The notes beneath the pieces are model-generated. The model saw only the letters and a list, made by a program, of their open reading frames with translations, searched no databases and was not told the origin of the DNA. Below are positions 2,988 through 28,862 of a DNA stretch of 28,862 nucleotides, one piece after another (position 1 is the stretch's first letter; the number at the start of each line of letters is the position of its first letter). Origin of the DNA: a virus (lineage: Duplodnaviria; Heunggongvirae; Uroviricota; Caudoviricetes); IMG/VR virus record IMGVR_UViG_3300009515_000001. One strand, written 5' to 3'. Both the position numbers and the translations under genes were made by a program.

Positions 2988-3163
2988 ATCTGCCAATAAC
3001 ATTAGAACAAGCAAACGTATGTCCTGGTTGTTATGAACGAGATATAATTAATTGGAAGAAACACTTCATGGATAAACACCCAAACGAAGTAGCATATCAT
3101 TTCAATTTACAGATATGGGCAGTCATAAAATCATTAGATAATTTAGGGAAGTACACGCCATGA
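2984..3163 (+). CDS. 59-aa probable C2H2-type zinc-binding protein (start corrected from 2930 to ATG 2984)
   Basis: ATGA overlap at 2984-2987; CPGC...WKKHFMDKH. Confidence 0.7.
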   Translation: MNLPITLEQANVCPGCYERDIINWKKHFMDKHPNEVAYHFNLQIWAVIKSLDNLGKYTP

Positions 3164-3372
3164 AAAAATGTTTTTACTGCAAGGAATCATTGGATCAGGA
3201 TAACACCTGTATAAATAAAAATTGTAGATGGTTTGGTAGGACACTTTACACAAGAAAAGAACTTGAAGAAATAATGGAAAAAGAAGGAGATCCAGTAAAA
3301 ATGGATGACGAATTATTCAATAATATACAGAAAAAAATGGAGTTGAGTAAAATTGGAAAGAAGTGGGAATAG
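3160..3372 (+). CDS. Zinc-finger microprotein
   Basis: CFYC...CINKNC; ATGA-coupled. Confidence 0.75.
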   Translation: MKKCFYCKESLDQDNTCINKNCRWFGRTLYTRKELEEIMEKEGDPVKMDDELFNNIQKKMELSKIGKKWE

Positions 3373-3396
3373 AGTATCAACAAAGTGCAACAACTG

Positions 3397-3404
3397 TTTA
3401 TATA
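3397..3404 (+). promoter_or_regulatory. Archaeal TATA box for a leaderless gene at 3426
   Basis: TTTATATA at -29 to -22 from ATG 3426. Confidence 0.6.
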
Positions 3405-3425
3405 TTAGTACATGGTGTATATAGT

Positions 3426-4265
3426 ATGGTAAAAAGAAAGACCAATAAAAGAAAATCAAAGAAAAGAAAGAAATCATCTACACCTAAGAGAACCAGACTA
3501 GATGTGTTAAAGGAACAGTTAAACAATTTGGCTTTACGTAATTCAGAATCATGGAATACAATTATGGCTAACAGCGGAATAGATAAAGAAAGATTAGTAG
3601 TTTTTATCAAAAATAATGGATATGAAGGATTAAAAAAATTACCAAACATCAGAATAGCACAACCAATATTAGATCAAATGATTAAAAATTTCAGAATTTA
3701 TGATAAAATGGAAAATCTAATCCATAGAATGGAAGCGGCACAAAATAGATTATTCTCAAAACAGTTAGAAGATGAAACATTAAAACTAGAAGCACAGGTA
3801 GCTGAATTAGAAAAGGAAGAATCATTCTATACAACACAGCCAGATGAAAAAGGCTTTGTTGAATTAAAACAAAAATGGTATGCAGAAATGGAATTTTGGG
3901 AACAAAGACTTGCAGAAGCTGAAATCCTGGTAGCTGAAAATCCAGAAAGTGAGAAAGCTATTGCGGCATTAGAAGAAGCTAAACGAGAAATCTCAATGTT
4001 AAAAAAGAAAAAGAACTGGAAAAGAATGAAGAATATTCAGCCAAACATAGCAAAGTGGTCACAAAAGATCAGTAAAGGAATTAACACAGTACAAGATTCA
4101 ATTTCAGAAGTAACACAACCATTTAGAGAAATGGGAGAAATGTCAGGGTATGATACAAAGAAAAAGGACACAACTGATTATGAAAAAATGTTCAGTCCTG
4201 AAAGTGTATTTGATACAAAATCAAGCAAAAAGAAAAAGGAAGTTGATTTCTTTGGGGGATTTTAA
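3426..4265 (+). CDS. Coiled-coil protein with basic N-terminal tail (start corrected from 3363 to ATG 3426)
   Basis: MVKRKTNKRKSKKRKK start behind a TATA box; long E/K/L/A-rich heptad region. Confidence 0.75.
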   Translation: MVKRKTNKRKSKKRKKSSTPKRTRLDVLKEQLNNLALRNSESWNTIMANSGIDKERLVVFIKNNGYEGLKKLPNIRIAQPILDQMIKNFRIYDKMENLIHRMEAAQNRLFSKQLEDETLKLEAQVAELEKEESFYTTQPDEKGFVELKQKWYAEMEFWEQRLAEAEILVAENPESEKAIAALEEAKREISMLKKKKNWKRMKNIQPNIAKWSQKISKGINTVQDSISEVTQPFREMGEMSGYDTKKKDTTDYEKMFSPESVFDTKSSKKKKEVDFFGGF

Positions 4266-14084: not shown

Positions 14085-15083
14085 GTGGGAAGTATTGAAG
14101 TATTAACCATTGTAATCGTTATTGTATTTGGTGCATTAATGATTCCAATATTGTTCGATGAAAACCCAGCTGCGTTTCTAGAAAACTCACTTTGTACTAT
14201 AATAACACCTTTTGGTGGAAATAATTTTACATGTAATTCAATTAGTGGTAATGTAACATTCACTGGTTTAAATGGGATAGATATTTTTGCAAATGGAACA
14301 AATCAAATAATTTGGAATTTTACTGGTTCGGCAGGAAATGGTACTGGTGGTGGAAACCAAACAGATGAAACTCATGTTTCTTTAGGTGGAGATGCGGATA
14401 TTTTCAAGAATGAAACGTTATCTAATGCAAACTTTCGCGGCGTTAGCGCCGGTATTGGTATTAATGTAACCGAAAGAACTAACGACGCGTTGATCGCCTT
14501 AATAGACTGTGATAATAATGAATTACTTTTATTCAATGGAACTACTGATGATTTTGAATGTATTGACGGGCAAACCTTCGCCGCCGAAGCTTCTATAGAT
14601 AATACTGAAATTTTCTTTGCACATTTATCCGCTACTAATGCCGACGACGTAAAAGTTAGTTTTACTAATTATGATATGAGGGCGGTTAGATTTAACGATA
14701 ATGTAGACGTAGGGGCTACTTGGAGTTATACAGTACCAATTAATTTTAATTCAACGGGTACAACTATGGAGTTTAAACTATTTTGGTTTTCACAAAGTAG
14801 TGATGTTGGAGATGTATGTTGGCAATTTAAAATTAATGATGTAGTGGAAAATGATAATTTAGATTTTACATTAACGCAAGTAGATGAAATATGTACCGCT
14901 AACTTAGGCATTGATGTTTTAGCAGTTGATACTTTTCAAATACCTTCTACTACTCATAATTTTACTGCAAATGATTTAGCATGGATTCAAATACATAGAC
15001 AGGCAAAACAAAATAATAATCCTAATGATACATTTGAACAAAACGCTTACGCAATAATAGGGAAACTTAGATGGATCGCTTAA
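14085..15083 (+). CDS. Membrane-anchored or secreted glycoprotein, tail-fibre-like virion protein
   Basis: N-terminal hydrophobic helix; many N-x-S/T sequons; ADIFKN...FRGVSAGIGINVT segment and a C-terminal F..WSYTVP...KLFW...GDVCWQ beta-sandwich reminiscent of phage tail-fibre modules. Confidence 0.65.
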   Translation: MGSIEVLTIVIVIVFGALMIPILFDENPAAFLENSLCTIITPFGGNNFTCNSISGNVTFTGLNGIDIFANGTNQIIWNFTGSAGNGTGGGNQTDETHVSLGGDADIFKNETLSNANFRGVSAGIGINVTERTNDALIALIDCDNNELLLFNGTTDDFECIDGQTFAAEASIDNTEIFFAHLSATNADDVKVSFTNYDMRAVRFNDNVDVGATWSYTVPINFNSTGTTMEFKLFWFSQSSDVGDVCWQFKINDVVENDNLDFTLTQVDEICTANLGIDVLAVDTFQIPSTTHNFTANDLAWIQIHRQAKQNNNPNDTFEQNAYAIIGKLRWIA

Positions 15084-16039
15084 TTTTATTACTAAGTGTT
15101 AGCCTATTAGTAGTTAGTTCTATTACATTAATAGAAGCTCAAAAATTACCACCACCTGAAAAACAATTACCTCCACAAGTAGAACTTGAAGCCGAGTACA
15201 TAGGCAAGGCAATATTAGTTACATGGAAATTACCAATAGAAGAAACTAATACTACTACTGCTTACAAGTGGGTTTTACAACGTGATATAAATGGAAGTGG
15301 TTTTGTTGATATTGCCAACGGTGAACGAGATCCAAATAACAAGCCATTAAGCGAAGGACAGGAAGTTAGATATTATCTAGATAAAGTTAGCTCTCGAGGT
15401 TCTACATACAATTACAAAATCTTTTACGTTTCTGTCGATGGTCGAGAGATTACAGAAAGCAACGCTAAATCATCAGTCTTTATTGATAAAGACGAACCTT
15501 TAATTCATGTTGGAAAGGGTAATTATTTAGAAACTACTAGAATACTTACACCTTTCAACAAACCAATAATTAGAGTTTTATTTGATTCCTTTTTTGATAC
15601 GTTCCCATTAGCCTATGCTCCAACATCGAATTTAGAACCTATTATAACTTCAAGTTTAAACCCTAAAGACGAACCTTATTTATTTAATATTACACCTTTA
15701 CCTAATCCCGATCTATCATCAGATTGTAACCAAGTTTTAGAGATATTATACAAACCGAGTTTAAGTGGTGGACAAACCTTTGAAGTGTTCGCTACAATTT
15801 TAGAAAGTCAAATAATAGTTAGAAACCAACATCTTTATGATAACCTAGCAGATTCAAACAAACGAATCTTTAACGAATGGTATTTGATACCAAATTCCGA
15901 AGAATCAATACAAAACTTTGAAGCCCTTGAAGTCCAATTAGATATAGATTCTTCCTTAGAAATAGATCCAAATAATCATAGACAACTATCAATCTATGGA
16001 GTTAACATATACATACCAACAGGATCTTCATCATGTTAA
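15071..16039 (+). CDS. Secreted protein with one FN3-like domain
   Basis: Signal peptide (…TLIEA); AILVTWKLP...WVLQRDINGSGFVDIA...YYLDK..RGSTYNYKIFYV FN3 pattern. Confidence 0.75.
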   Translation: MDRLILLLSVSLLVVSSITLIEAQKLPPPEKQLPPQVELEAEYIGKAILVTWKLPIEETNTTTAYKWVLQRDINGSGFVDIANGERDPNNKPLSEGQEVRYYLDKVSSRGSTYNYKIFYVSVDGREITESNAKSSVFIDKDEPLIHVGKGNYLETTRILTPFNKPIIRVLFDSFFDTFPLAYAPTSNLEPIITSSLNPKDEPYLFNITPLPNPDLSSDCNQVLEILYKPSLSGGQTFEVFATILESQIIVRNQHLYDNLADSNKRIFNEWYLIPNSEESIQNFEALEVQLDIDSSLEIDPNNHRQLSIYGVNIYIPTGSSSC

Positions 16040-18146: not shown

Positions 18147-18377
18147 ATGGTACTATCACTGGGCTTTATCCTAGCCTTCATTGGTGCAGCTGTTGCATTA
18201 CTGATCGGAATTTTGATATTTTCCGAAGTCAGTGATGCCATAATTTGCCCCGTTGGCCAGGGAAATACCGAGTGTGAAAATGCTAAGGACACTGCATGGA
18301 CTGTTATAGGTATATTGCCTGTGGCACTCTTCTTTGCCCTCTTTGCGATTTTTGGAGCCCTCGGTGGGCGTCAATAA
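18147..18377 (+). CDS. Probable major capsid protein of spindle-shaped archaeal virus type (two hydrophobic helices)
   Basis: 76 aa; helix-loop-helix with a ...IGILPVALFFALF second helix like SSV1 VP1/His1-type MCPs. Stand-alone unit with its own TATA box and a hairpin plus oligo-T terminator, as expected for a highly expressed gene. Confidence 0.7.
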   Translation: MVLSLGFILAFIGAAVALLIGILIFSEVSDAIICPVGQGNTECENAKDTAWTVIGILPVALFFALFAIFGALGGRQ

Positions 18378-18407
18378 ACGTAGAGTTGTCATTGATCACT
18401 CTCAAAT

Positions 18408-18450
18408 AGTGTGTGGAAAAACACACTCAAAACTCCTTTTTCTTTTTTTT
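18408..18450 (+). terminator. Hairpin plus oligo-T terminator after the capsid-like gene
   Basis: AGTGTGT-GGAAAA-ACACACT (18408-18427), then TTTTTCTTTTTTTT to 18450. Confidence 0.7.
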
Positions 18451-18517
18451 AAAATCCAAAAAACATCAGGTTTTGTTTTTCTAACTTGTAAAAGTTTCAC
18501 GTTTTAATAACAATTTA

Positions 18518-18554
18518 TGAAACACTAAAACAAAAAAATCTTGTTTGTGTTTCA
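18518..18554. repeat. Inverted repeat
   Basis: TGAAACAC(TA)AAACAA ... TTGTTTGTGTTTCA: 14 bp with a 2-nt bulge. Confidence 0.6.
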
Positions 18555-18561
18555 AAAATAC

Positions 18562-18638
18562 TGTAACACAAGAATTAAAAAATCTAGAATTGTTTCTTTT
18601 GCCATTTTTCATGTAACACAAGAATAAATAAATCTAGA
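18562..18638 (+). repeat. Two 27-bp direct repeats, 50-bp period
   Basis: TGTAACACAAGAATTAAAAAATCTAGA (18562-18588) and TGTAACACAAGAATAAATAAATCTAGA (18612-18638); 25/27 identical. Confidence 0.85.
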
Positions 18639-18640
18639 GA

Positions 18641-18677
18641 TTGTGTCAGACAATTCATAAAATAATCTTTAAAATAA
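18641..18677 (+). promoter_or_regulatory. Operator-like site TTGTGTCAGACAAT plus TATA box of the 18699 gene
   Basis: TGTCAGACAAT (18644-18654) is identical to 19050-19060; TTTAAAATA begins at -31 from ATG 18699. Confidence 0.6.
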
Positions 18678-18698
18678 CTGATTGATGTTAAAATCTAC

Positions 18699-19013
18699 AT
18701 GGCAGTAACAATAATTATAATTGCAACACTTTCAATTATTGCAACTGTCATGGCTGTTCTGGCACTAATGCCTGTCATACAAGATATGGGAACAGATGCT
18801 AGTGGAAGCTGGGATAAACAACAGGAATTAAAGAACATAACATGTAATCCTGCTGATAGTGAGTGCCTGGAACGTCAGATTAATGCAATTCGTTCATTAT
18901 CTGCAAGAGATAAAGCATTTACAGCTATTGTGGCATTACCAATATTCTTGATTGGAGCTATCGCGGCTTGGGCATTTTTGGCTGTAACTCGTAGAGATTT
19001 TGGAGAAGTCTAG
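18699..19013 (+). CDS. Two-helix hydrophobic protein, capsid-protein paralog (VP3-like minor capsid candidate)
   Basis: RDKAFTAIVALPIFL aligns with KDTAWTVIGILPVAL of 18147; CNPADSEC loop parallels CPVGQGNTEC; C-terminal WAFLAVTRRD. Confidence 0.65.
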   Translation: MAVTIIIIATLSIIATVMAVLALMPVIQDMGTDASGSWDKQQELKNITCNPADSECLERQINAIRSLSARDKAFTAIVALPIFLIGAIAAWAFLAVTRRDFGEV

Positions 19014-19022
19014 AAAATTTTC

Positions 19023-19068
19023 TTATAAATAACCTAGAAAGGTGATCAATGTCAGACAATGTCTGACA
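19023..19068 (+). promoter_or_regulatory. TATA box plus 19-bp palindromic operator over the RHH gene start
   Basis: TTATAAATAACCTA at 19023-19036; TGTCAGACA-A-TGTCTGACA at 19050-19068 is a perfect inverted repeat around one base. Confidence 0.75.
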
Positions 19069-19223
19069 CAAGGAAGAAGCTTCAGCGTAGAGTATCCTTT
19101 AGAATAACTGATCGCCAAGCCAAAGAACTTGATCGAATGATAAAACAAGGAATGAACCCATCAATGCAGTTCAGAACTGCTTTGGAAAAAATGATGCGTG
19201 ATGCCAGGAGAAGAAGATTTTGA
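19059..19223 (+). CDS. 54-aa ribbon-helix-helix transcription regulator, not in ORF track (MSDTRKKLQRRVSFRITDRQAKELDRMIKQGMNPSMQFRTALEKMMRDARRRRF)
   Basis: Alternating strand VSFRI, helix A TDRQAKELDRM, G turn, helix B S..FRTALEKM: canonical CopG/Arc-type pattern. Confidence 0.85.
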   Translation: MSDTRKKLQRRVSFRITDRQAKELDRMIKQGMNPSMQFRTALEKMMRDARRRRF

Positions 19224-19419
19224 TCAGTTTAAAATCACCACTGGATCTCAAATTCGATTCGGAGAAATATCTAAAAAAAGTAAAAGAAATGGAGGAAAAG
19301 AAAAAATGCTCATAGCTACTGAAAAGGACTGTCTTTGTAAAATTAAAATTATTTCATCTAAAGATCCTGAACACTGTAAGAACTGTAAAGGATACATAAA
19401 CTACAAGGTGGGAATGTAA
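19198..19419 (+). CDS. Small basic protein with a C-terminal Cys cluster
   Basis: CLC...CKNC; overlaps the RHH gene end. Confidence 0.6.
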   Translation: MMPGEEDFDQFKITTGSQIRFGEISKKSKRNGGKEKMLIATEKDCLCKIKIISSKDPEHCKNCKGYINYKVGM

Positions 19420-19499
19420 GTGGCAGTTTTAATTATTGTAAGATCAGCTCTAGAAAGACTAGAACAAAAAAAGTTCAAAGAATCAATGAGGTGGAACAA

Positions 19500-19751
19500 A
19501 TGGCAGTAGCAATTGTAGTTCTTGCAATCATTTCATTGTTTTCAGTTGGTATTGCGATGTTTACATTTCAACCAGCCATTTACGATCTTGCATATAACAA
19601 CTCATTTTGGGAAGATGCTAACAACGTTGATGTAAGATTACAGGTTCTTAGGGATTCTATCTACGGAGCAACAATAGCTATTCCAGCAATAATGGTAGGC
19701 GTAGTAGCTGTATGGGCTTTGCTGGCTGTATCAAGGAGAGATGATGTCTGA
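19500..19751 (+). CDS. Two-helix hydrophobic protein, paralog of 18699 (start corrected from 19491 to ATG 19500)
   Basis: GAGGTG SD-like motif at 19488-19493; MAVAIVVLAII parallels MAVTIIIIATL; RD...AIPA..G..A.WALLAVSRRD matches the 18699 protein. Confidence 0.75.
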   Translation: MAVAIVVLAIISLFSVGIAMFTFQPAIYDLAYNNSFWEDANNVDVRLQVLRDSIYGATIAIPAIMVGVVAVWALLAVSRRDDV

Positions 19752-22700
19752 TGGGCAAAAAGAGAAGAAAACCATACATGTCAAAACCAGATCCAGAACT
19801 ACGTGAAGTAAAATACATTCTACTTGGGGTTGTAATCGTTTTTCTAGGATACTTTGTACTATTTCCAGTATTATCTGCACCATCTATGTTTCTACTTCCA
19901 GAAGCTTATGCAGAAGATCAGAACATCATAATGCTAGGTGATGTAAATCGGCCACGACAGGGTGGAACTGGAACAACCTGTCCTACAATTACTGGACCAT
20001 CTAGTGCGACAGATGCAGGAACATCAACAATAAGACACTGGCGACAGTCGGATGCAACTGGATGTGAGGTTACAACTTGGACATTTGACTTGGATTCAAC
20101 AACACATGTACTTATTCCATCATACTTTAATGATTTTATAACAGGTCTAAGCTTCATTCATGATCCAACTGGAGTTTCTACAATGGGTTCTGCTTGTAGA
20201 TTGTATGAGGTATCAGAACAGGGAGTAGATCCAAGATTAAACATTACAGCCGCCTATGAGGTTGTAGATGGAAGAAATCAAAACATAGTTGGAAGTTACA
20301 ACAACTGTGATACTGGCGGAACAGCCCCAGAGTGGTTAAGTTCTGGAACTTCGAATTATCTTGATTCAATGGCATTAAACAGCACTTTCTTTTCTTATGG
20401 TATTCAGACATTATCTGACAACAGACAGGTAGCAAGTGATTCAACTCATAATGCCAATACATTTATGAAATTAAGATTCACCAACCCAACAGTTCTAACA
20501 AATACAATGTGGATGATGCAAGAACATCCAAAATTTCCATCTAGTGACATTACTGGTGGTTTCTTTGGAATTGACGATACGACATTTACAATGGATTCAA
20601 ACACATTAGATGATACGGAAATTGGTCAGGTAGTAGTCATCAAAGAATTTAACAAGACAACTGATAGTTTGGATGGTTCAAGTATTAGAATTACAGGTGG
20701 TTTAGTATCACAAACAAGTGCAGCTGATCAGTGGGTTAGAATTGAAGTAAAAGATGGATCTTATGGAACTCAAACCTTAAATTCATTTCCAGAAGATGAA
20801 TATGATACTTATCAAGACGGTGGATCACTTGGAGTGATCCATATTCAACCAACTACAAGTATAGAAACATTTGATATTTCATTTACACCTAATTGGTCAA
20901 ATTCAACAAACGATATAGTAACTGTATTCATAGGTGTAGATGATAACTCTACTGCTGGTTCTACAATTGCAAACATTACATCAGTCGAATGGGATTCAAT
21001 TATAAAATATAATTTTGAGGACATAAATCAATTAAATTTCTATGAAACATCAGTAGAATTATCATCTAATTCAGAGATAAGAGTTGGGGCAAATGACTAT
21101 GATGCAGGTTTTATAAATATGACAAATGTAACTGCTTCTGGATTTAGTCCAAGTACATTACCAACACCATCATCTCCAACTGACGGATTTGCAAATGCGA
21201 CATCGACAACAACAATAGATCTTACCTGGAATCATAATCTATTAAACGTAACAGACTTTGAAATTTCAAGAAACGGAACAAAGCTTACAGATACAAACAA
21301 CATAGATCTAAACTATACAGATACTGGTTTAACGGAGGAAACGCCATACGGATATACAGTATGTGCAATCAACGGTGATGTAAAAGAATCTACTTGTACT
21401 ACAATGGAAGCAGTAACACAAGCAACGCCAATTCCAGATCCAGTTTCAGACTTTGACGCAACCGCATTTGAAACTGGTGTTTTCTTAAACTGGACAAAAC
21501 CATCATCAACACCAGAACTAGACACATATCACATTGAAAGATCATTTAGTTTAAACGGAACATGGCAATTCAGGGAAATATTCCCAGGTTCAGGTGGTGG
21601 TTCAACTATCTGTGGATTTTCTGGAAGTAGCGGACCAAATGATGTTTGGCAAATGAGTTCAACAGGTTCAACAAATTACGGTGCATGTCAAACTTGGATA
21701 AACCTACCAACAGAACTAATCAATAACACAAAGGTTCACATTGATTGGGAAGGTGAAATACTTGGATTCCAAACAGGTACATACACAATTAAAACTGGTT
21801 ATGCTAACCAAGCTGTATTTGGAAATCCATTTACATCATTACCAGTATTAGATAGTTCAGATATTGTTATAGGAACACAAGGGCAACCAACTTTAGACAC
21901 AGGTCTTAATGTAATAGGAACACCAGTAACAAAAAGCATAGTTGTTACAACAGGATTCCCAAGAGAGATCTCCACCTATGAACCATCAGCAGGTGAGTAT
22001 GCAGCAGATACTTCAAATCCATACACTGCATTAGTAATTCAAGTAGAAGATGATATAACAGATGGAGGAGCACCAGCACTTAGAATATTTTCAGTAAATG
22101 TAACAGATGCCACAACTGATGAAACTTTAATGTTTTGGAATTTCACCGAAACTAACAATGCAGGTTTAGATAATAATATAGTATTCAATTACGATTATGG
22201 AACATTTGATGTAGATATTTCAAATACTGAACCAGATGATGCGACAATATTCAATACTTTTGAACCAGTAGTATCAGTAAATAGAGAGCAAGGATGGGAT
22301 GAACAGGGATCAATAACAGAAACATCAAAATCAATAGACTACGGTCCACAAACAAACGAGATCAGATTTAGAGATGATGGAAAAACAGTAATAATTTCAC
22401 ACCCAGTTGCAGGATTTGGAAATCCAATACTAAAACAGTACAACCTAACACAAGCATGGAATCTAACAACAGCAGTATTCTACAAAGATGAACCACTTAA
22501 CGAAATAAACAATATCTTAGATGGAACATTATCTGCATTTGATGTAAAACCAGATGGAACATTGTTGTGGGCTACTGATACAGTATCAGATGAAATATTT
22601 GAGTTTGAAATGACAACACCATGGGACCTATCAACCTTAGACTATACAGGTGGTAATAGCTTCTTTTGTAGAATGACAGGTGAAGATGCAGTTTGTGATA

Positions 22701-25700
22701 AAAGTAGTGCCGACAATATCTTTACACTTAGATTTACAACAGACGGTAGATTCATCATAGCCTTAGATCAAACTGGTGCATTAGGACAGACAGAAGATAA
22801 AATTTACAAATATGCCATGTCAACACCCTACGACATTGAAACATTGTTTGAAAGACCACAGGAATATGATCTGACTTCAGACGCAAATGGTGGTGACAGT
22901 TGGAACAACATGGCATTATCAACAAACGGAACTTTATTGTACTTGGTTTCACAAGAGGGTGGAACTTGTCCACAATCTGACATAGTACAAAGATTTGAGC
23001 TAAATAACCCATTCAACATTACAAGTGCCAATAAAATTGGTTTTGGTAGAAACATTTGTTCAAACATAGACAGCCCAACAGGACTAAACTTCAAACCAGA
23101 TGGAACAATCATGTATGTAACAGGTAGAGATGTATCTGGTGGGGCTTTAGACCATACAGCACAGTTTGCATTACTTGATGTTTCTGAACCTAACTCATAT
23201 TATGATTATGATGTTGAATTAAATACAGACTATAAATATCAAATATTTTCTGAAAACACAAATGGAAACAGTACAGTTACACAAAGTAATAGTGTTTTAA
23301 CAAATGACAAACCAGCACAGGTAACAGGATTAACCGCAGTAAGAAATACACCAACACAGATAGATCTACAATGGGATACAATTCCAGATACTTCAGGTCA
23401 AGGAGATCCAAGCACAGGCGTACTATTACAGGAATATAGAATTTTCAGAAGTGAAAATGGTGGTGCGTTTGAGTTAGTTGGAGTAAATGAAAGACAATCC
23501 CCACCAGCAATTTTCTTCAATGATACATCTGTAAATGCCACATTTTTCTATTCGTATAACGTAGAAGCTTGTAACGAACTTGGTTGTGGAAATAGTTCAT
23601 CATCATTCTTTGTTGCAACATCACCACCAAAACCACAGAACCTAACTGCAACTGCTGATATTGCAGATGTTTTGTTAGAATGGATCGGTAACTCAACAAC
23701 TGATGATGATTATAGAATTGAAAGAGGTAATGCAACAGTAGTCGGTTCATGGACATTAGGAACATCAATTCCTGATGAATATGACGTTTCATATAATATT
23801 GGGGCTGGAATATTTTTATCATCAGATGGACAATACCTATTCTTACCAGATGTACTTAGTGACACTGTAAATAGACATACAATGTCAACTCCATTTGAAA
23901 TAACAACTGCAACATCAACTCAAAACAGTACAGATCTTACTTCTACATTAGGATCAAAAGTATCTCAAATTACAGACATTCATTTTAAACGAGATGGAAA
24001 AACAATGTTTGTTTTAGATAATACGAATACAGACATTTATGAATATAGTTTAGGAACAGCTTGGGATCTTTCAACATTGGCATATAATGCTGAATTTACT
24101 GGATTACCTAGTGGTATGCAAGGATTCTGGTTTACAGAAGATGGTTTGAGAGTTTTTCTTGTTAGATCAACTACTGACCAAGTTTACAAATATAATTTAA
24201 CAAGTGCATGGGATATTTCAACAATAACATTTGCACAGGTAGTTAGTTCAGGAGCTTCAACAGGACCATTTGATATAATGGTTAGACCTGATGGTAAATT
24301 CTTAGGAATTTTAGATATTGGGGCTGGCTTGAATGATTCAATAGACGGATATAACATGACAACTGCATTTGATTTAACAACTTTAGTAGGAGCAGGTGGT
24401 ATGAATGTAGGTCAATCTGGTGCCTATGCTCCTGAACCAAGAAGTATGTTTATACCACCTGATGGAAGGGCGGCATACGTTGACCAAGTAACACCTGATG
24501 ATAAGGCATTTCAATTCAATCTTAATTCAACTCTATTAGATAACTTTTTGCTAGGGGAATTTGAGATCATTGTTCCAAGTTTGGTTGATTCAAATGTAGA
24601 ATTTCTAAGTGATGACTTTACAAAATATCCAGATAATGCAACAGCAGATCTAACATGGATTCCAGAAGTTACAGGATTTGATAGTGCAGATGATGTTGTT
24701 GGAGTAAATGCAACCTTAGATAAAATAATGTTCACAACAAGTACATCATCAGGATCGAATATTTTATTTGATCTCAATGCTTTACTTGGAAAAAATCTAA
24801 CTGATAGTTCTGGTGCTGGTGATTTTAATATGACATGGACTTCCGATTTAACACAACTTGATGGTGATTGTTCAAATCTTTGTGTTACTGGAGCTATGTT
24901 TGTTAACTTAATTGATAGGGATGCTACACAAGGAGGAACACAAACAGGTATCACAACTGGATATTTTTATCAGGGATTAAATCCTTCATTTGAAGATGAT
25001 ATTGCATTATATGTAATGGAAGATCAAGCACCATCACTTGATGAATTTAATGGAAATTGTAATAATCATGGACCTAATCCAAATCCAGAAACATTATTCC
25101 ATCAAATAACAAAAATTGGTAATGATATAAACTATAAAGTAGGAATCGATACAACTTATGGAGAGTGTTCAGTTAGTCATACAACTGTAAAAACACTTGA
25201 CGACATTCAATACTTAACGTTAAGAAGAACAGGAACAGGTTCTTCTAGTAACGATCATGGATTCAGATTTGATGACTTTTCAATATCAACTAACGGAACA
25301 TTAGTAACATTATACCGAGATAAAGACGTAGAACTTGGAACAGCTTATACATATAGAGTAACAGCATTAAACAGCACAATCCCATCAGAACCATCAGAAA
25401 CAGCTTCAGTTCTAACAAACGATTTCCCTGAAATAGTTGAAAATGCACAGGCAGAATTCAATATTCCAACCCAAGTCGATATTCAATGGGATGAGTTAGA
25501 CTTTGATTCTGGAGCTGGAAACCCAACAACAGGATTAAACCTAACAAAATACCAAATTTTCAGGCAAAACGTTACAGCCGCAACACCCTATGAACTAGCT
25601 GGGGAAGTGTTTGCCTCAAGCCCACCACCAAACTTCTTTAACGATACTTCTGCCACATTTCCAAGTGTTTTTAATTACCAAATTTCAGCCTGTAATGCTT

Positions 25701-28700
25701 TAGGTTGTAGTGCAAACTCAACATCTTCTCAAACATTAGTAACTCAAGTTCCAGATCCAGTTGTAAACATGAGTGCAATAGCTGTTAACAATACAGTTTC
25801 ATTGGATTGGGATGATTCAACATTTGCAATAAATTACACAATAACAAGAGGAATTCTTAATGCAAGTCATATTATAATTGCTCAAGGTGTAACAACTTCT
25901 GATTATATTGATACTACAGTATCAACAAATGTAAACTACACATATTCAGCATGGGCTGTAAACAACAATGGAAACGGAACAACTGGATTCTCAAATTCAG
26001 TAATAACTAACGATCTACCAACAGCCCCACAAAACCTGGTAGGCGCTATGGGAATTGTAATTCCTGATCTGGAAGATGTGTTCTTGGATTGGGAACACCC
26101 ATTAGACAACGGAACAGGAGATCCAAGTACAGGTGTTGATATTATCCACTACCAAGTAGAAAGAAAGCAAGGAGTAGGTGCATTTTCATTCTTGGCAAAC
26201 ACATCAAATGCTGTTCCAGAATACGAAGATGAAACCGTAATTTCAGGAGCAAACTACACATACAAAGTACGAGGTATTAACGCATTAGGTTTCAGTCCAT
26301 TCAGTAACACATTCAGTATTATAACAACACCACTAACACCGCCACAAGCCCCAACTGATCTAACAGCAAACACATTAAGTGGAACAGAAATTAAGCTTGA
26401 TTGGTTAGCCCCAGTTTCAGGAGATCCACCAACAGACTATGTTCTTCAACAAAGACATGTAGGATTCGGTGGATTTGTTACACTTGCAACAATTCCAGCC
26501 CCAAGCCTAACATACACATCAACAGGTTTGGTTAGTGGCGACACCTATGATTATAGGGTTAGGGCAGACAACGGAGCTGGTTCAAGTCCGTATTCAAACA
26601 TAGCTACCAACGCAACATTTACAGTTCCAGGCGCACCATTAAACTTGATTGCAAATACAATAAACGATACTGCGATCTTTTTGGACTGGGATGTGCCAAG
26701 CTTCACAAACGGTGGTATAATAAAATATGAGATCGAAAGAGAATCACCAGAAAATGGTGGGTTCAGTAAGATAGCTGAAATTGCAACAACGACAGAATCA
26801 AACTTTACATCAACTGCATACAAGGTTGAAACAAACAACTTTGCAGGAAGCACTTGCCCTACTAACAGAATCGGTCCATCAACACTTTCAGGAGAAATGA
26901 GGGCTTCACCATCAAACAGTGTTTTAGATTGTGAAAGACAGGCATTTGAGTTTGATATATCATCAATCCCAACAGGTGCAATAGTAACAAATGCAACAAT
27001 AGAATATGACGTTACATTAGTAGCAGGGGGACCACCAAGAACCTGTGATTTCAACGACATTCAATTCCAACCATCTGCATATCCAGTAAACTTTACAGGA
27101 GCTTCAAACTTATGGGATGATATAGGAAATGGAACTAGCTTTATTGCAGGAAATACAGATTGTCAAACTATTGCTAATGATTACATAAGAGTATTGCCAG
27201 CAAGTGCTATTGCTGATATACAAGATAATATTGATGGTGCAGAAGGATGGTGGGCATTTGGTGGAAAGCTATCTAGTGAAGTAAGGGTATCAAGCCAAAC
27301 ACATAGAGCAGATACAGGTACTTTCCTATTAACACTTGAAATAATCAATGCAACAACAAGTCCAGATACTGAATATACAGATACAGGTTTAACACCAAAG
27401 ACTGAATATAATTATCGTGTTAATGCAACCAACCTAATAGGTTCTGGACCATACTCTAATGAGGCTAAAGATACAACCTTTGGTGTAGCAGGACCGCCAA
27501 TAAACCTAGCCTTTGATACAAACGGAGTTTCAACTATCACAGTAGAATGGGATGAACCAGTAAATAACTTTGGTTCTGCGGTAACAGGTTATAGAATAGA
27601 CCAAGCACAAGATGTTGGTGGAACATTTGTTACTGTAATTGGCAACACTGGAAACAACGTTGAACCACTTGAAGAAACATTCATCGGGTTGTTGCAACAG
27701 ACAACTTACATTTACAGAATTGCTGCGATCAATGGATTCGGTCTTGGTGACTTTAGTGCAAACCTAACAGCAGGAACATTCATCGGACCATCTGAACCAG
27801 AAAACTTCTTTGCACAGTTTAACGCAACAAAGCCATACAGTGTGTTCTTGTCATGGGAAACACCACTTAGCGATGGCGGTAAGCCAATTCAGGGTTACTT
27901 GGTTGAAAGAAAGAACGAATCAGGAGTGTTTGTTTTGATCGCAAACTTGACAAGTCCATTACTTCTAAACTATACCGATGATTCATTACTCCAGTTAATC
28001 GAACATGAGTATCGAGTTGCGGCATATTCAAACCCAATAGGATCATTTACTAGCGGATCAACTGCAACAGTAGTTCCACCGAACTTCACATCATTTGTTA
28101 TTAATGACTTTAATGTAGTGGGTGATGTATTAGGACAGGCATATACAATAGAGATCAATGACTGTTTCCCTGCATGTGTGTTAACTTCAGCAGATATTGA
28201 AAGAAATGGTATTGTAGAAGCAAACTATCTGGTAGGACAGCCACTCCCATTAGATACGCCACTTAACTTTACAACATTCTTCATAATACCAGTAGCAGGA
28301 TCACATGACATTAACACAACTGCAATAGTTACAAATCCAGGAACAACAGGAGATGATGAGGTCGGAGTTATAACAACAAGTTTCGAGTTCCAAGTGGATA
28401 CAATCTTCTTTAACCATTCAAGAAACACCGCATTTGATGAGCTAAACTTTGAACTTGTTAGACATCCAATTCCCTGGAACGCTGAATGTGAGCTTCGTGG
28501 TGGCAGACCAGCGGTTATAGATACAGTAATACCAGTCTTGCCTTTCGGTGGTACAATTACTTTGCCTGGTTCTATTGCAATAAATCCGTTTGATATTACA
28601 GCAACACTAAGCTTACAGGGAGTTGGTTCTTATGAAAGTCCGCCAACATTTGATGTAGTTCCAAGTAGAAATGCGTATATGGCCTGCTTTGATCCAGAAG

Positions 28701-28862
28701 ATATTCAAATTCTAGCATTTACAAGCTTTGGAACAGGAAACGGAACACTGGCATTAACTGGATTTACTGACCAGTTAGGAACATTCTTGGGAGTTCCAGT
28801 TCCATTCATATTCATAATTATACTTGCGGCAATCTGGACAGGAAGATCAGCTAGCACAGGAA
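19751..28862 (+). CDS. Giant (at least 3037 aa, 3' truncated) virion adhesin/tail glycoprotein: about 11 FN3 domains, two beta-propellers, lectin/CBM-like sandwiches, C-terminal membrane anchor; not in ORF track
   Basis: Translated by hand with no stop from ATG 19751 (TGATG overlap) to the window end. Signal/TM ending LLPEAYA; repeated FN3 motifs (P..P.NL.A...I.L.W...Y.I.R...Y.D..L...Y.Y.V.A.N..G.S..S); F.PDG...W/FD(L/I)ST blades; dozens of N-x-S/T sequons; TM FLGVPVPFIFIIILAAIW at the end. Confidence 0.92.
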   Translation, partial: MGKKRRKPYMSKPDPELREVKYILLGVVIVFLGYFVLFPVLSAPSMFLLPEAYAEDQNIIMLGDVNRPRQGGTGTTCPTITGPSSATDAGTSTIRHWRQSDATGCEVTTWTFDLDSTTHVLIPSYFNDFITGLSFIHDPTGVSTMGSACRLYEVSEQGVDPRLNITAAYEVVDGRNQNIVGSYNNCDTGGTAPEWLSSGTSNYLDSMALNSTFFSYGIQTLSDNRQVASDSTHNANTFMKLRFTNPTVLTNTMWMMQEHPKFPSSDITGGFFGIDDTTFTMDSNTLDDTEIGQVVVIKEFNKTTDSLDGSSIRITGGLVSQTSAADQWVRIEVKDGSYGTQTLNSFPEDEYDTYQDGGSLGVIHIQPTTSIETFDISFTPNWSNSTNDIVTVFIGVDDNSTAGSTIANITSVEWDSIIKYNFEDINQLNFYETSVELSSNSEIRVGANDYDAGFINMTNVTASGFSPSTLPTPSSPTDGFANATSTTTIDLTWNHNLLNVTDFEISRNGTKLTDTNNIDLNYTDTGLTEETPYGYTVCAINGDVKESTCTTMEAVTQATPIPDPVSDFDATAFETGVFLNWTKPSSTPELDTYHIERSFSLNGTWQFREIFPGSGGGSTICGFSGSSGPNDVWQMSSTGSTNYGACQTWINLPTELINNTKVHIDWEGEILGFQTGTYTIKTGYANQAVFGNPFTSLPVLDSSDIVIGTQGQPTLDTGLNVIGTPVTKSIVVTTGFPREISTYEPSAGEYAADTSNPYTALVIQVEDDITDGGAPALRIFSVNVTDATTDETLMFWNFTETNNAGLDNNIVFNYDYGTFDVDISNTEPDDATIFNTFEPVVSVNREQGWDEQGSITETSKSIDYGPQTNEIRFRDDGKTVIISHPVAGFGNPILKQYNLTQAWNLTTAVFYKDEPLNEINNILDGTLSAFDVKPDGTLLWATDTVSDEIFEFEMTTPWDLSTLDYTGGNSFFCRMTGEDAVCDKSSADNIFTLRFTTDGRFIIALDQTGALGQTEDKIYKYAMSTPYDIETLFERPQEYDLTSDANGGDSWNNMALSTNGTLLYLVSQEGGTCPQSDIVQRFELNNPFNITSANKIGFGRNICSNIDSPTGLNFKPDGTIMYVTGRDVSGGALDHTAQFALLDVSEPNSYYDYDVELNTDYKYQIFSENTNGNSTVTQSNSVLTNDKPAQVTGLTAVRNTPTQIDLQWDTIPDTSGQGDPSTGVLLQEYRIFRSENGGAFELVGVNERQSPPAIFFNDTSVNATFFYSYNVEACNELGCGNSSSSFFVATSPPKPQNLTATADIADVLLEWIGNSTTDDDYRIERGNATVVGSWTLGTSIPDEYDVSYNIGAGIFLSSDGQYLFLPDVLSDTVNRHTMSTPFEITTATSTQNSTDLTSTLGSKVSQITDIHFKRDGKTMFVLDNTNTDIYEYSLGTAWDLSTLAYNAEFTGLPSGMQGFWFTEDGLRVFLVRSTTDQVYKYNLTSAWDISTITFAQVVSSGASTGPFDIMVRPDGKFLGILDIGAGLNDSIDGYNMTTAFDLTTLVGAGGMNVGQSGAYAPEPRSMFIPPDGRAAYVDQVTPDDKAFQFNLNSTLLDNFLLGEFEIIVPSLVDSNVEFLSDDFTKYPDNATADLTWIPEVTGFDSADDVVGVNATLDKIMFTTSTSSGSNILFDLNALLGKNLTDSSGAGDFNMTWTSDLTQLDGDCSNLCVTGAMFVNLIDRDATQGGTQTGITTGYFYQGLNPSFEDDIALYVMEDQAPSLDEFNGNCNNHGPNPNPETLFHQITKIGNDINYKVGIDTTYGECSVSHTTVKTLDDIQYLTLRRTGTGSSSNDHGFRFDDFSISTNGTLVTLYRDKDVELGTAYTYRVTALNSTIPSEPSETASVLTNDFPEIVENAQAEFNIPTQVDIQWDELDFDSGAGNPTTGLNLTKYQIFRQNVTAATPYELAGEVFASSPPPNFFNDTSATFPSVFNYQISACNALGCSANSTSSQTLVTQVPDPVVNMSAIAVNNTVSLDWDDSTFAINYTITRGILNASHIIIAQGVTTSDYIDTTVSTNVNYTYSAWAVNNNGNGTTGFSNSVITNDLPTAPQNLVGAMGIVIPDLEDVFLDWEHPLDNGTGDPSTGVDIIHYQVERKQGVGAFSFLANTSNAVPEYEDETVISGANYTYKVRGINALGFSPFSNTFSIITTPLTPPQAPTDLTANTLSGTEIKLDWLAPVSGDPPTDYVLQQRHVGFGGFVTLATIPAPSLTYTSTGLVSGDTYDYRVRADNGAGSSPYSNIATNATFTVPGAPLNLIANTINDTAIFLDWDVPSFTNGGIIKYEIERESPENGGFSKIAEIATTTESNFTSTAYKVETNNFAGSTCPTNRIGPSTLSGEMRASPSNSVLDCERQAFEFDISSIPTGAIVTNATIEYDVTLVAGGPPRTCDFNDIQFQPSAYPVNFTGASNLWDDIGNGTSFIAGNTDCQTIANDYIRVLPASAIADIQDNIDGAEGWWAFGGKLSSEVRVSSQTHRADTGTFLLTLEIINATTSPDTEYTDTGLTPKTEYNYRVNATNLIGSGPYSNEAKDTTFGVAGPPINLAFDTNGVSTITVEWDEPVNNFGSAVTGYRIDQAQDVGGTFVTVIGNTGNNVEPLEETFIGLLQQTTYIYRIAAINGFGLGDFSANLTAGTFIGPSEPENFFAQFNATKPYSVFLSWETPLSDGGKPIQGYLVERKNESGVFVLIANLTSPLLLNYTDDSLLQLIEHEYRVAAYSNPIGSFTSGSTATVVPPNFTSFVINDFNVVGDVLGQAYTIEINDCFPACVLTSADIERNGIVEANYLVGQPLPLDTPLNFTTFFIIPVAGSHDINTTAIVTNPGTTGDDEVGVITTSFEFQVDTIFFNHSRNTAFDELNFELVRHPIPWNAECELRGGRPAVIDTVIPVLPFGGTITLPGSIAINPFDITATLSLQGVGSYESPPTFDVVPSRNAYMACFDPEDIQILAFTSFGTGNGTLALTGFTDQLGTFLGVPVPFIFIIILAAIWTGRSASTG

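Follow-up and report, generated by a model that had tools for sequence, protein, structure and literature searches.

The stretch of DNA analyzed here, called the window throughout (28,862 nt, IMG/VR record IMGVR_UViG_3300009515_000001), has a G+C content of ∼33%, carries nearly every gene on the + strand, and ends in one giant open reading frame (ORF; 19751-28861, +) for a protein built around a row of FN3 domains. The ORF runs in a single frame to the end of the window, where its 3' end is open, and gives 3037 aa within the window; the full-length product, P0002, has 3089 aa and is encoded on a 92.9 kb contig according to the database record. FN3 was the sole family in a Pfam scan of P0002 (whole-protein score 140 bits, cut-off 25), and a total of 11 FN3 domains were counted, eight of them uninterrupted and three interrupted between strand C and strand E by one or two large modules, referred to below as guests. 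Hydropathy revealed one hydrophobic helix near the N-terminus and three at the C-terminus (aa 3007-3030, 3033-3055, and 3066-3085), and the protein contains 71 N-x-S/T sequons, as against 42 expected from its composition. The features of the ORF are listed below with the evidence for each; profile positions refer to an FN3 profile that was built from the eight uninterrupted domains of P0002 and then searched against P0002.

19751-19930, + strand: basic N-terminus and hydrophobic helix (aa ∼20-45), a predicted signal peptide or signal anchor (hydropathy, sequence)
19931-21148, + strand: conserved N-terminal domain or domains, of no known family (Pfam scan, family comparison)
21149-21427, + strand: FN3 "a", intact (own FN3 profile, 81 bits, profile 1-96)
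21434-21550, + strand: split FN3 no. 1, N-half, strands A-C, aa 562-600 (profile 2-43)
21551-22330, + strand: guest S1, a beta-sandwich of ∼260 aa (family alignment; no Pfam or PDB sequence match)
22331-23170, + strand: guest PR1, a propeller with five DG-type repeats, of an SGL/lactonase-like family with ∼3,900 relatives (sequence repeats)
23171-23305, + strand: split FN3 no. 1, C-half, strands E-G, aa 1141-1185 (profile 50-96)
23312-23623, + strand: FN3 "c", intact (own FN3 profile)
23624-23761, + strand: split FN3 no. 2, N-half, aa 1292-1337 (profile 2-52)
23762-24625, + strand: guest PR2, a five-bladed beta-propeller (model, match to 3qqz)
24626-25285, + strand: guest S2, a beta-sandwich of ∼220 aa (model, family comparison)
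25286-25420, + strand: split FN3 no. 2, C-half, aa 1846-1890 (profile 52-96)
25424-26623, + strand: FN3 "e", "f", "g", and "h", four intact domains, with "f" at 25748-26014 (own FN3 profile)
26624-26785, + strand: split FN3 no. 3, N-half, strands A, B, C, and C', aa 2292-2345 (profile, model)
26786-27337, + strand: guest C3, a 184-aa beta-sandwich with four conserved Cys, CBM96/DNRLRE-like (fold and language-model leads)
27338-27478, + strand: split FN3 no. 3, C-half, strands E-G, aa 2530-2576 (profile 49-95, model)
27485-28081, + strand: FN3 "j" and "k", intact (own FN3 profile)
28082-28861, + strand: conserved C-terminal domain and the first of the three C-terminal hydrophobic helices, the remainder lying just past the window

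Besides full-length matches, the profile search returned three pairs of half matches in P0002, each pair complementary on the FN3 profile. Splicing each N-half to its C-half in silico produced a single FN3 match over profile positions 2-96 (36.9, 42.5, and 65.6 bits for splits 1, 2, and 3, respectively), whereas the reversed order of halves gave two separate partial matches for all three splits. Because the halves are complementary and match end to end only in their natural order, we conclude that the split FN3 domains are real and not a chance resemblance. The Pfam fn3 model (PF00041), run on aa 2285-2585, scored 45 bits in two stretches, the best of which was the C-half of split 3 (profile positions 43-81 of 84). 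A first-pass annotation of the sequence had claimed that three FN3 domains are split at about the same point and that the FN3 chain continues through them despite their large guests. The complementary halves and the spliced matches support both claims, and the half coordinates given there (21428-21560/23195-23305, 23621-23740/25310-25423, and 26621-26790/27345-27480) agree with ours within ∼8 codons.

The break point is common to the three domains in that every interruption falls between strand C and strand E, but a clear C'-E loop is seen in split 3 only, from the strands of its model. In split 1, the motif NGTWQFRE directly after strand C proved in the alignment to be the conserved start of the guest S1 family; because it belongs to the guest, the FN3 of split 1 may have no C' strand of its own. 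Between the first guest of split 2 and S2 lies the motif FEIIVPSLVD (aa ∼1609-1618, 24575-24605), conserved in five of the six aligned units at this position (not in P0014). Judged by sequence, it is a candidate for the missing C' strand of this FN3, in which case the propeller and S2 would sit in separate loops (C-C' and C'-E); this part of the split 2 model is disordered.

For split 3, aa 2285-2585 were folded with AlphaFold from an alignment of three insert-bearing orthologs, two distant insert relatives, and 10 insert-free orthologs. The resulting model (mean pLDDT confidence score 72.9, ∼85 in the FN3 halves) shows a canonical FN3 closed around the 184-aa insert, with strands A, B, C, and C' before the guest and E, F, and G after it; in the model, the separated halves thus complete one seven-strand FN3 sandwich. 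The top matches in an exhaustive structural comparison were solved single FN3 domains (Z 13-14, 88-105 residues, root-mean-square deviation [rmsd] 1.2-2.7 Å), and since the aligned range covers model residues ∼5-295, the FN3 match uses both halves across the insert. An insulin receptor chain was also among the fold matches; its FnIII-2 domain is an FN3 interrupted between C and C' by a long, largely disordered segment, not by folded exchangeable domains.

The model of split 2 (aa 1288-1895) was confident in the propeller and moderate in the sandwich, with both FN3 halves at pLDDT <50; its input alignment was dominated by propeller fragments. The halves of split 1, co-folded as separate chains, scored 0.40, compared with 0.00 for the best of three controls, which the tool rates as weak support (in calibration, 58 of 80 solved complexes and 2 of 110 mismatched pairs passed the mark, and values up to 0.60 count as a weak pass). 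At least 70% of the contacts agreed between runs and partner pLDDT was at least 61. Because FN3 is a much-solved fold, this pass may partly be memory. The closure of N- and C-halves into one FN3, expected in the first-pass annotation, was accordingly seen in the model of split 3, while for splits 1 and 2 it is supported by sequence and, for split 1, also weakly by co-folding.

The contents of the three inserts were as first described: sandwich plus propeller, propeller plus sandwich, and a domain resembling a carbohydrate-binding module (CBM). Residues 50-310 of the PR2 model form five blades at pLDDT ∼85-95. Its best structural match was YjiK (3qqz; Z 21.1, rmsd 2.9, 227 of 243 residues aligned), followed by glutaminyl cyclase and the catalytic propellers of GH43, GH32, and GH62 (Z 17-20), of which the glutaminyl cyclase and GH43 matches are five-bladed. 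The sequence family of PR2 comprises ∼3,900 representatives, among which are many giant repeat proteins with Pfam matches of the SGL/Lactonase type. We favor ligand binding as the role of the guests; these matches raise the alternative that the guests, and the five-bladed propellers in particular, act enzymatically, as glycan depolymerases or lactonase-like hydrolases stripping the glycan or S-layer coat of the host. The structural likeness to glycosidase propellers and the SGL and Lactonase matches among sequence relatives would suit such a role, as would the mannanase-like core proposed for VP4, the tailspike of SSV19 (PMC9351363). Identity to the matched enzymes is only 5-12%, however, the best structural match, YjiK, is a non-enzymatic domain, and the propeller sequence family occurs mainly in giant repeat proteins, so that we regard an enzymatic role as quite unlikely.

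For guest C3, modeled within its FN3 unit, a Foldseek search found the alginate-binding CBM 7vbo (E 1.3e-4, probability 1.00, TM-score by target 0.44), a comparison of Atlas features found CBM96 clusters (score 0.96-0.97, 168-173 shared features), and DNRLRE-named AlphaFold DB entries were among its structure matches. None of the five members of the C3 family matched Pfam, including PF24517 (CBM96/DNRLRE), at E up to 10, and the NCBIfam model NF033679 (DNRLRE) reached E 0.036 in one of the five, with no match of note otherwise. Three independent leads agree, and "CBM-like" seems a fair description of the modeled fold. Searching the AlphaFold DB clusters for the nested unit, an FN3 containing a CBM96-like module, returned no entry as a global match (best TM-score by query 0.43), which is weak evidence. 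The Atlas leads for S1 and S2 were weak and mixed (CBM27, CBM_4_9, and GalBD-like for S1; DUF6645 and PelX_N for S2), and neither is given a fold name here.

P0002 belongs to a family of ∼22 giant proteins (1,900-5,100 aa) with shared N- and C-terminal domains, shared membrane helices, and a largely shared FN3 rod. In 20 relatives, a further 32 N-half/C-half pairs were found; the break always falls at profile positions 41-62, and the inserts measure either 180-316 or 508-603 aa. Of 167 unrelated proteins retrieved through the propeller, 20 contain FN3 and only P0178 has split pairs; because just this one of the 20 shows them, the splitting habit belongs to the P0002 lineage. It extends to domains that are whole in P0002: FN3 "f" is split by 140-170-aa inserts in P0004, P0011, P0017, and P0018. 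An additional block of ∼315 aa lies between "f" and "g" in P0008, P0009, and P0010. Near aa 305 of the N-terminal domain (window ∼20660-20670), ∼300 aa with a propeller are inserted in P0004, P0006, P0007, P0009, and P0018 (the P0006 insert, aa 325-613, matches SGL at E 1e-5), and domain insertion is therefore not confined to FN3. The S1 family occupies the first split position (slot 1) in P0002, the third (slot 3) in six relatives, and also occurs in P0178. A family-wide iterative inventory of modules was dropped, with 84 segments left uncovered.

Slot 3 provided the clearest view of variation at a single position, with an unambiguous alignment. Ten relatives have the orthologous FN3 uninterrupted; module A (the C3 guest) occupies it in P0002 and two relatives (P0003 and P0012), and a different module, B, does so in six others. 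Module B is of the S1 family and shows no detectable homology to A (hhalign probability 0.5%). The insert polymorphism that had been anticipated among aligned homologs is therefore present. On a tree of the flanking domains (g, h, j, and k; 402 columns), approximately unbiased (AU) tests rejected a clade of A carriers (p-AU 6e-8) and a clade of all loaded forms together (p-AU 2.6e-4). Two well-supported sister pairs differ in their slot-3 state: P0012 (A) and P0013 (none), with support of 100/100, and P0008 (B) and P0011 (none), with 100/98. The tree of the host FN3 halves themselves groups by insert state, requiring 2-3 changes where the minimum is 2 (a value this low was reached in 0 of 200 shuffles). 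Sister genes are 78-88% identical in nucleotides across the neighboring FN3 domains and only 55-62% in the slot-3 host halves, on both sides of the junction. Because the halves group by state and identity drops inside the host FN3, host FN3 and guest seem to be exchanged as one unit at slot 3, and the conserved neighboring FN3 repeats, from the pattern of identity, likely act as homology arms. GC and GC3 (G+C at third codon positions) of the inserts were no different from those of the stalk.

The pattern at slot 2 was of another kind. Six proteins (P0002, P0005, P0004, P0009, P0013, and P0014) have in common the slot-2 halves and S2. S2 directly follows the N-half in P0013 and P0014; a propeller separates the two in P0002 and P0005, and an unrelated 300-aa module does so in P0004 and P0009. 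This last module looked ConA/LamG-like by eye and, having no Pfam match, was left unnamed. The nearest relatives of the P0002 parts are discordant: P0004 for the halves (70% and 67%), P0013 for S2 (48%), and P0023 and P0005 for the propeller. Such a mosaic fits what reshuffling inside the loop would produce. The suggestion in the first-pass annotation that the loop itself is a recombination slot thus fits slot 2; at slot 3, where the host FN3 appears to move with its guest, it seems not to hold. No att-like or template-repeat structure was found at the insert borders. A 17-nt direct repeat of 88% identity flanks S2 (24610-24626 and 25270-25286) and a 38-nt pair of 71% identity flanks the propeller; we take both as chance or coding constraint because they lie in conserved DDF/NAT-coding motifs.

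The same data bear on an alternative without any cassette exchange, namely an ancestor in which all FN3 domains were loaded, followed by nothing but separate deletions and rapid divergence. Deletion would account for the 10 relatives that lack the slot-3 insert cleanly and in frame, and the guests do evolve faster than the stalk (45-51% vs. 62-85% identity). Loss alone would nonetheless have to accommodate two unrelated modules in one slot and the same module family in different slots, as well as a flank tree that rejects a single origin both of A and of the loaded forms at the p-values above, and slot-2 parts whose nearest relatives disagree. We consider this account highly improbable.

The genomic setting is informative about the element that carries the gene. 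In relatives, the giant gene is syntenic within a shared neighborhood of orphan genes on contigs of 69-93 kb; relatives were binned into archaeal metagenome-assembled genomes (MAGs), one of them within a Nitrosotalea MAG. A relative of the "j", "k", and C-terminal region (L004:6196-7887, 40% identity) was found at the end of a 61.9 kb contig from a Nitrosotalea sp. bin, which links the family to a second genus of ammonia-oxidizing archaea. The setting fits a virus-like element of ammonia-oxidizing archaea of ∼93 kb as the source. A DNA search of a phage database with the window gave no match, and neither single-protein scans of genome and viral contig collections nor an alignment scan of viral contigs returned anything. 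Directly upstream of the giant gene (18147-19750, e.g., 18699-19013) are small ORFs with two hydrophobic helices each, which are compatible with spindle-virus capsid proteins. Two other ORFs of the window encode probable surface proteins: the 332-aa product of 14085-15083 contains 12 N-x-S/T sequons (3.6 per 100 aa), and that of 15071-16039 combines a signal-like start with a stretch resembling FN3 (W..LP...Y.W.L.R...Y.Y.I). The C-terminus of P0002, just past the window end, reads ...GKRFF, and a 300-aa ORF at 3363-4265 ends in ...DFFGGF (window 4248-4265).

This setting admits a different location for the same architecture, namely display on the infected or lysogenic cell, where it could mediate cell-cell or cell-surface adhesion, vesicle or element transfer, or the exclusion of competing elements. 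A signal helix and C-terminal membrane helices suit a protein of the cell membrane equally well, no capsid or terminase gene was recognizable in the window, and the binning of relatives into archaeal MAGs would agree with such a location. The syntenic position of the gene right after the small two-helix proteins, by contrast, resembles the structural block of spindle viruses with its helix-anchored VP4 (PMC9351363). On balance, display on the cell seems unlikely to us.

Our preferred reading, to which we give a probability of about 0.65, is that P0002 is a glycosylatable surface fiber of an archaeal virus-like element, in which split FN3 domains bear lateral guests and which is diversified by recombination. 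The fiber would be type-I-like and heavily N-glycosylatable, with a signal or anchor helix, a conserved N-terminal domain, 11 FN3 domains that form the rod, and a conserved C-terminal domain ahead of the three hydrophobic helices. At a loaded position the chain would exit the sandwich after strand C or C', form one or two guests with adjacent ends, and return for strands E-G; given that the guest ends lie together and the chain returns to its host FN3, the guests would project sideways and the rod would stay continuous. The guests may be ligand-binding heads, probably glycan-binding, that attach to the host envelope, and the C-terminal helices may anchor the fiber in the virion or a membrane in the manner of the three-helix bundle of fusellovirus VP4; both receptor binding and a place on the virion are putative. 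Recombination among related elements would generate the diversity, at slot 3 by swapping whole loaded or unloaded FN3 units via the conserved neighboring FN3 and at slot 2 by reshuffling guests within the loop.

Several points weigh against this reading. The guest sandwiches S1, S2, and C3 matched no Pfam family and no PDB or NCBIfam sequence, and because of the missing Pfam matches, the term "lectin-like" for the guests draws on fold and language-model leads. No solved structure, VP4 included, was detectable by sequence for P0002 outside its FN3 domains; since there is no detectable sequence similarity, the analogy with VP4 is a functional one. The insert-state groups compared by the AU tests were defined once quick trees had already been inspected. 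Finally, AU tests on the short host-FN3 alignment did not reject the pairings of the flank tree (p 0.07 and 0.26), and for this reason the co-transfer of host and guest at slot 3 is suggested, not proven. A bolder form of the fiber reading is a combinatorial host-recognition system of large thaumarchaeal viruses, in which any FN3 can serve as a dock and co-circulating elements exchange loaded and unloaded FN3 units, or guests within a loop, by homologous recombination via the conserved stalk repeats. This we regard as a tentative possibility, doubtful at present. If true, the fiber would carry a changeable panel of lateral heads, and the panel, not the distal tip, would set host range.

Display from split domains has been described in bacteria, and the RTX-adhesin papers named next cite Graham et al. 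(2024, Proteins 92:933) on this subject. In Gram-negative RTX adhesins (AhLap, FrhA, and MpIBP), ligand-binding domains bud from split Ig-like domains (PMC12077191, PMC10865825), and the authors locate ligand-binding domains by such splits (PMC12077191). Like P0002, these adhesins form a rod of tandem beta-sandwiches in which selected sandwiches are interrupted by a complete guest with adjacent termini that buds sideways; their guests include CBM-type sandwiches, and nesting can go further. One trait of these adhesins, a beta-sandwich extender domain interrupted by a budding guest, is found in P0002 as well. P0002 differs in that its host domain is FN3 and not BIg, it has neither a C-terminal RTX nonapeptide beta-roll nor a type I secretion signal, its anchor appears to be C-terminal hydrophobic helices, its source is an archaeal virus-like element, and its guests occur along the whole rod, paired within one loop and polymorphic among relatives. 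Pfam scans of the whole protein and of its segments gave no RTX or HemolysinCabind match, the C-terminus consisting of the three hydrophobic helices.

Among viruses, VP4, the attachment tailspike of the spindle virus SSV19, carries large, flexible, beta-rich insertions in its core domain; it is glycosylated at NXT sites and tied to the hydrophobic capsid through a three-helix bundle at its C-terminus (PMC9351363). P0002 resembles it in its inserted beta-rich modules and N-x-S/T sequons and may do so in its three C-terminal hydrophobic segments. In VP4, which is 1,236 aa long and lacks an FN3 rod, the host domain is a GH76-like barrel of the alpha/alpha6 type. Its sequence shows no detectable similarity to that of P0002, whose N- and C-terminal domains gave no PDB sequence match. 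Of the described devices, the RTX split domain comes closest, and of the viral parallels, SSV19 VP4. The "evolved" Dit and Tal proteins of siphophages are reported to have gained CBMs in the baseplate, their presence varying among related phages (PMC7533335, PMC10688798); unlike P0002, they belong to bacterial tailed phages, have a host domain other than FN3, and bear one or two modules without a loaded rod. With the split domains of RTX adhesins (PMC12077191), the inserts of SSV19 VP4 (PMC9351363), and the CBMs reported for evolved Dit (PMC7533335) already known, the design is not undescribed, contrary to what the first-pass annotation had supposed.

What does appear to be new is the FN3 host in an archaeal virus-like element, with several loaded positions per rod and up to two guests per loop, and likewise the documented polymorphism of one domain between empty, A-loaded, and B-loaded states with tree incongruence. 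No account of host recognition by viruses of ammonia-oxidizing archaea was found, the one report on related elements that was searched (PMC10866085) making no mention of an adhesin, fiber, or receptor. The gene family offers concrete candidates for this step in archaea that have a major part in the marine nitrogen cycle. On the preferred reading of P0002 as a surface fiber, the split-domain display principle of bacterial fibrillar adhesins would have arisen independently in the archaeal virosphere, with FN3 as its scaffold. The empty, A-loaded, and B-loaded series of one FN3 would also be a natural map of tolerance to whole-domain insertion, which may interest those who engineer FN3 scaffolds.

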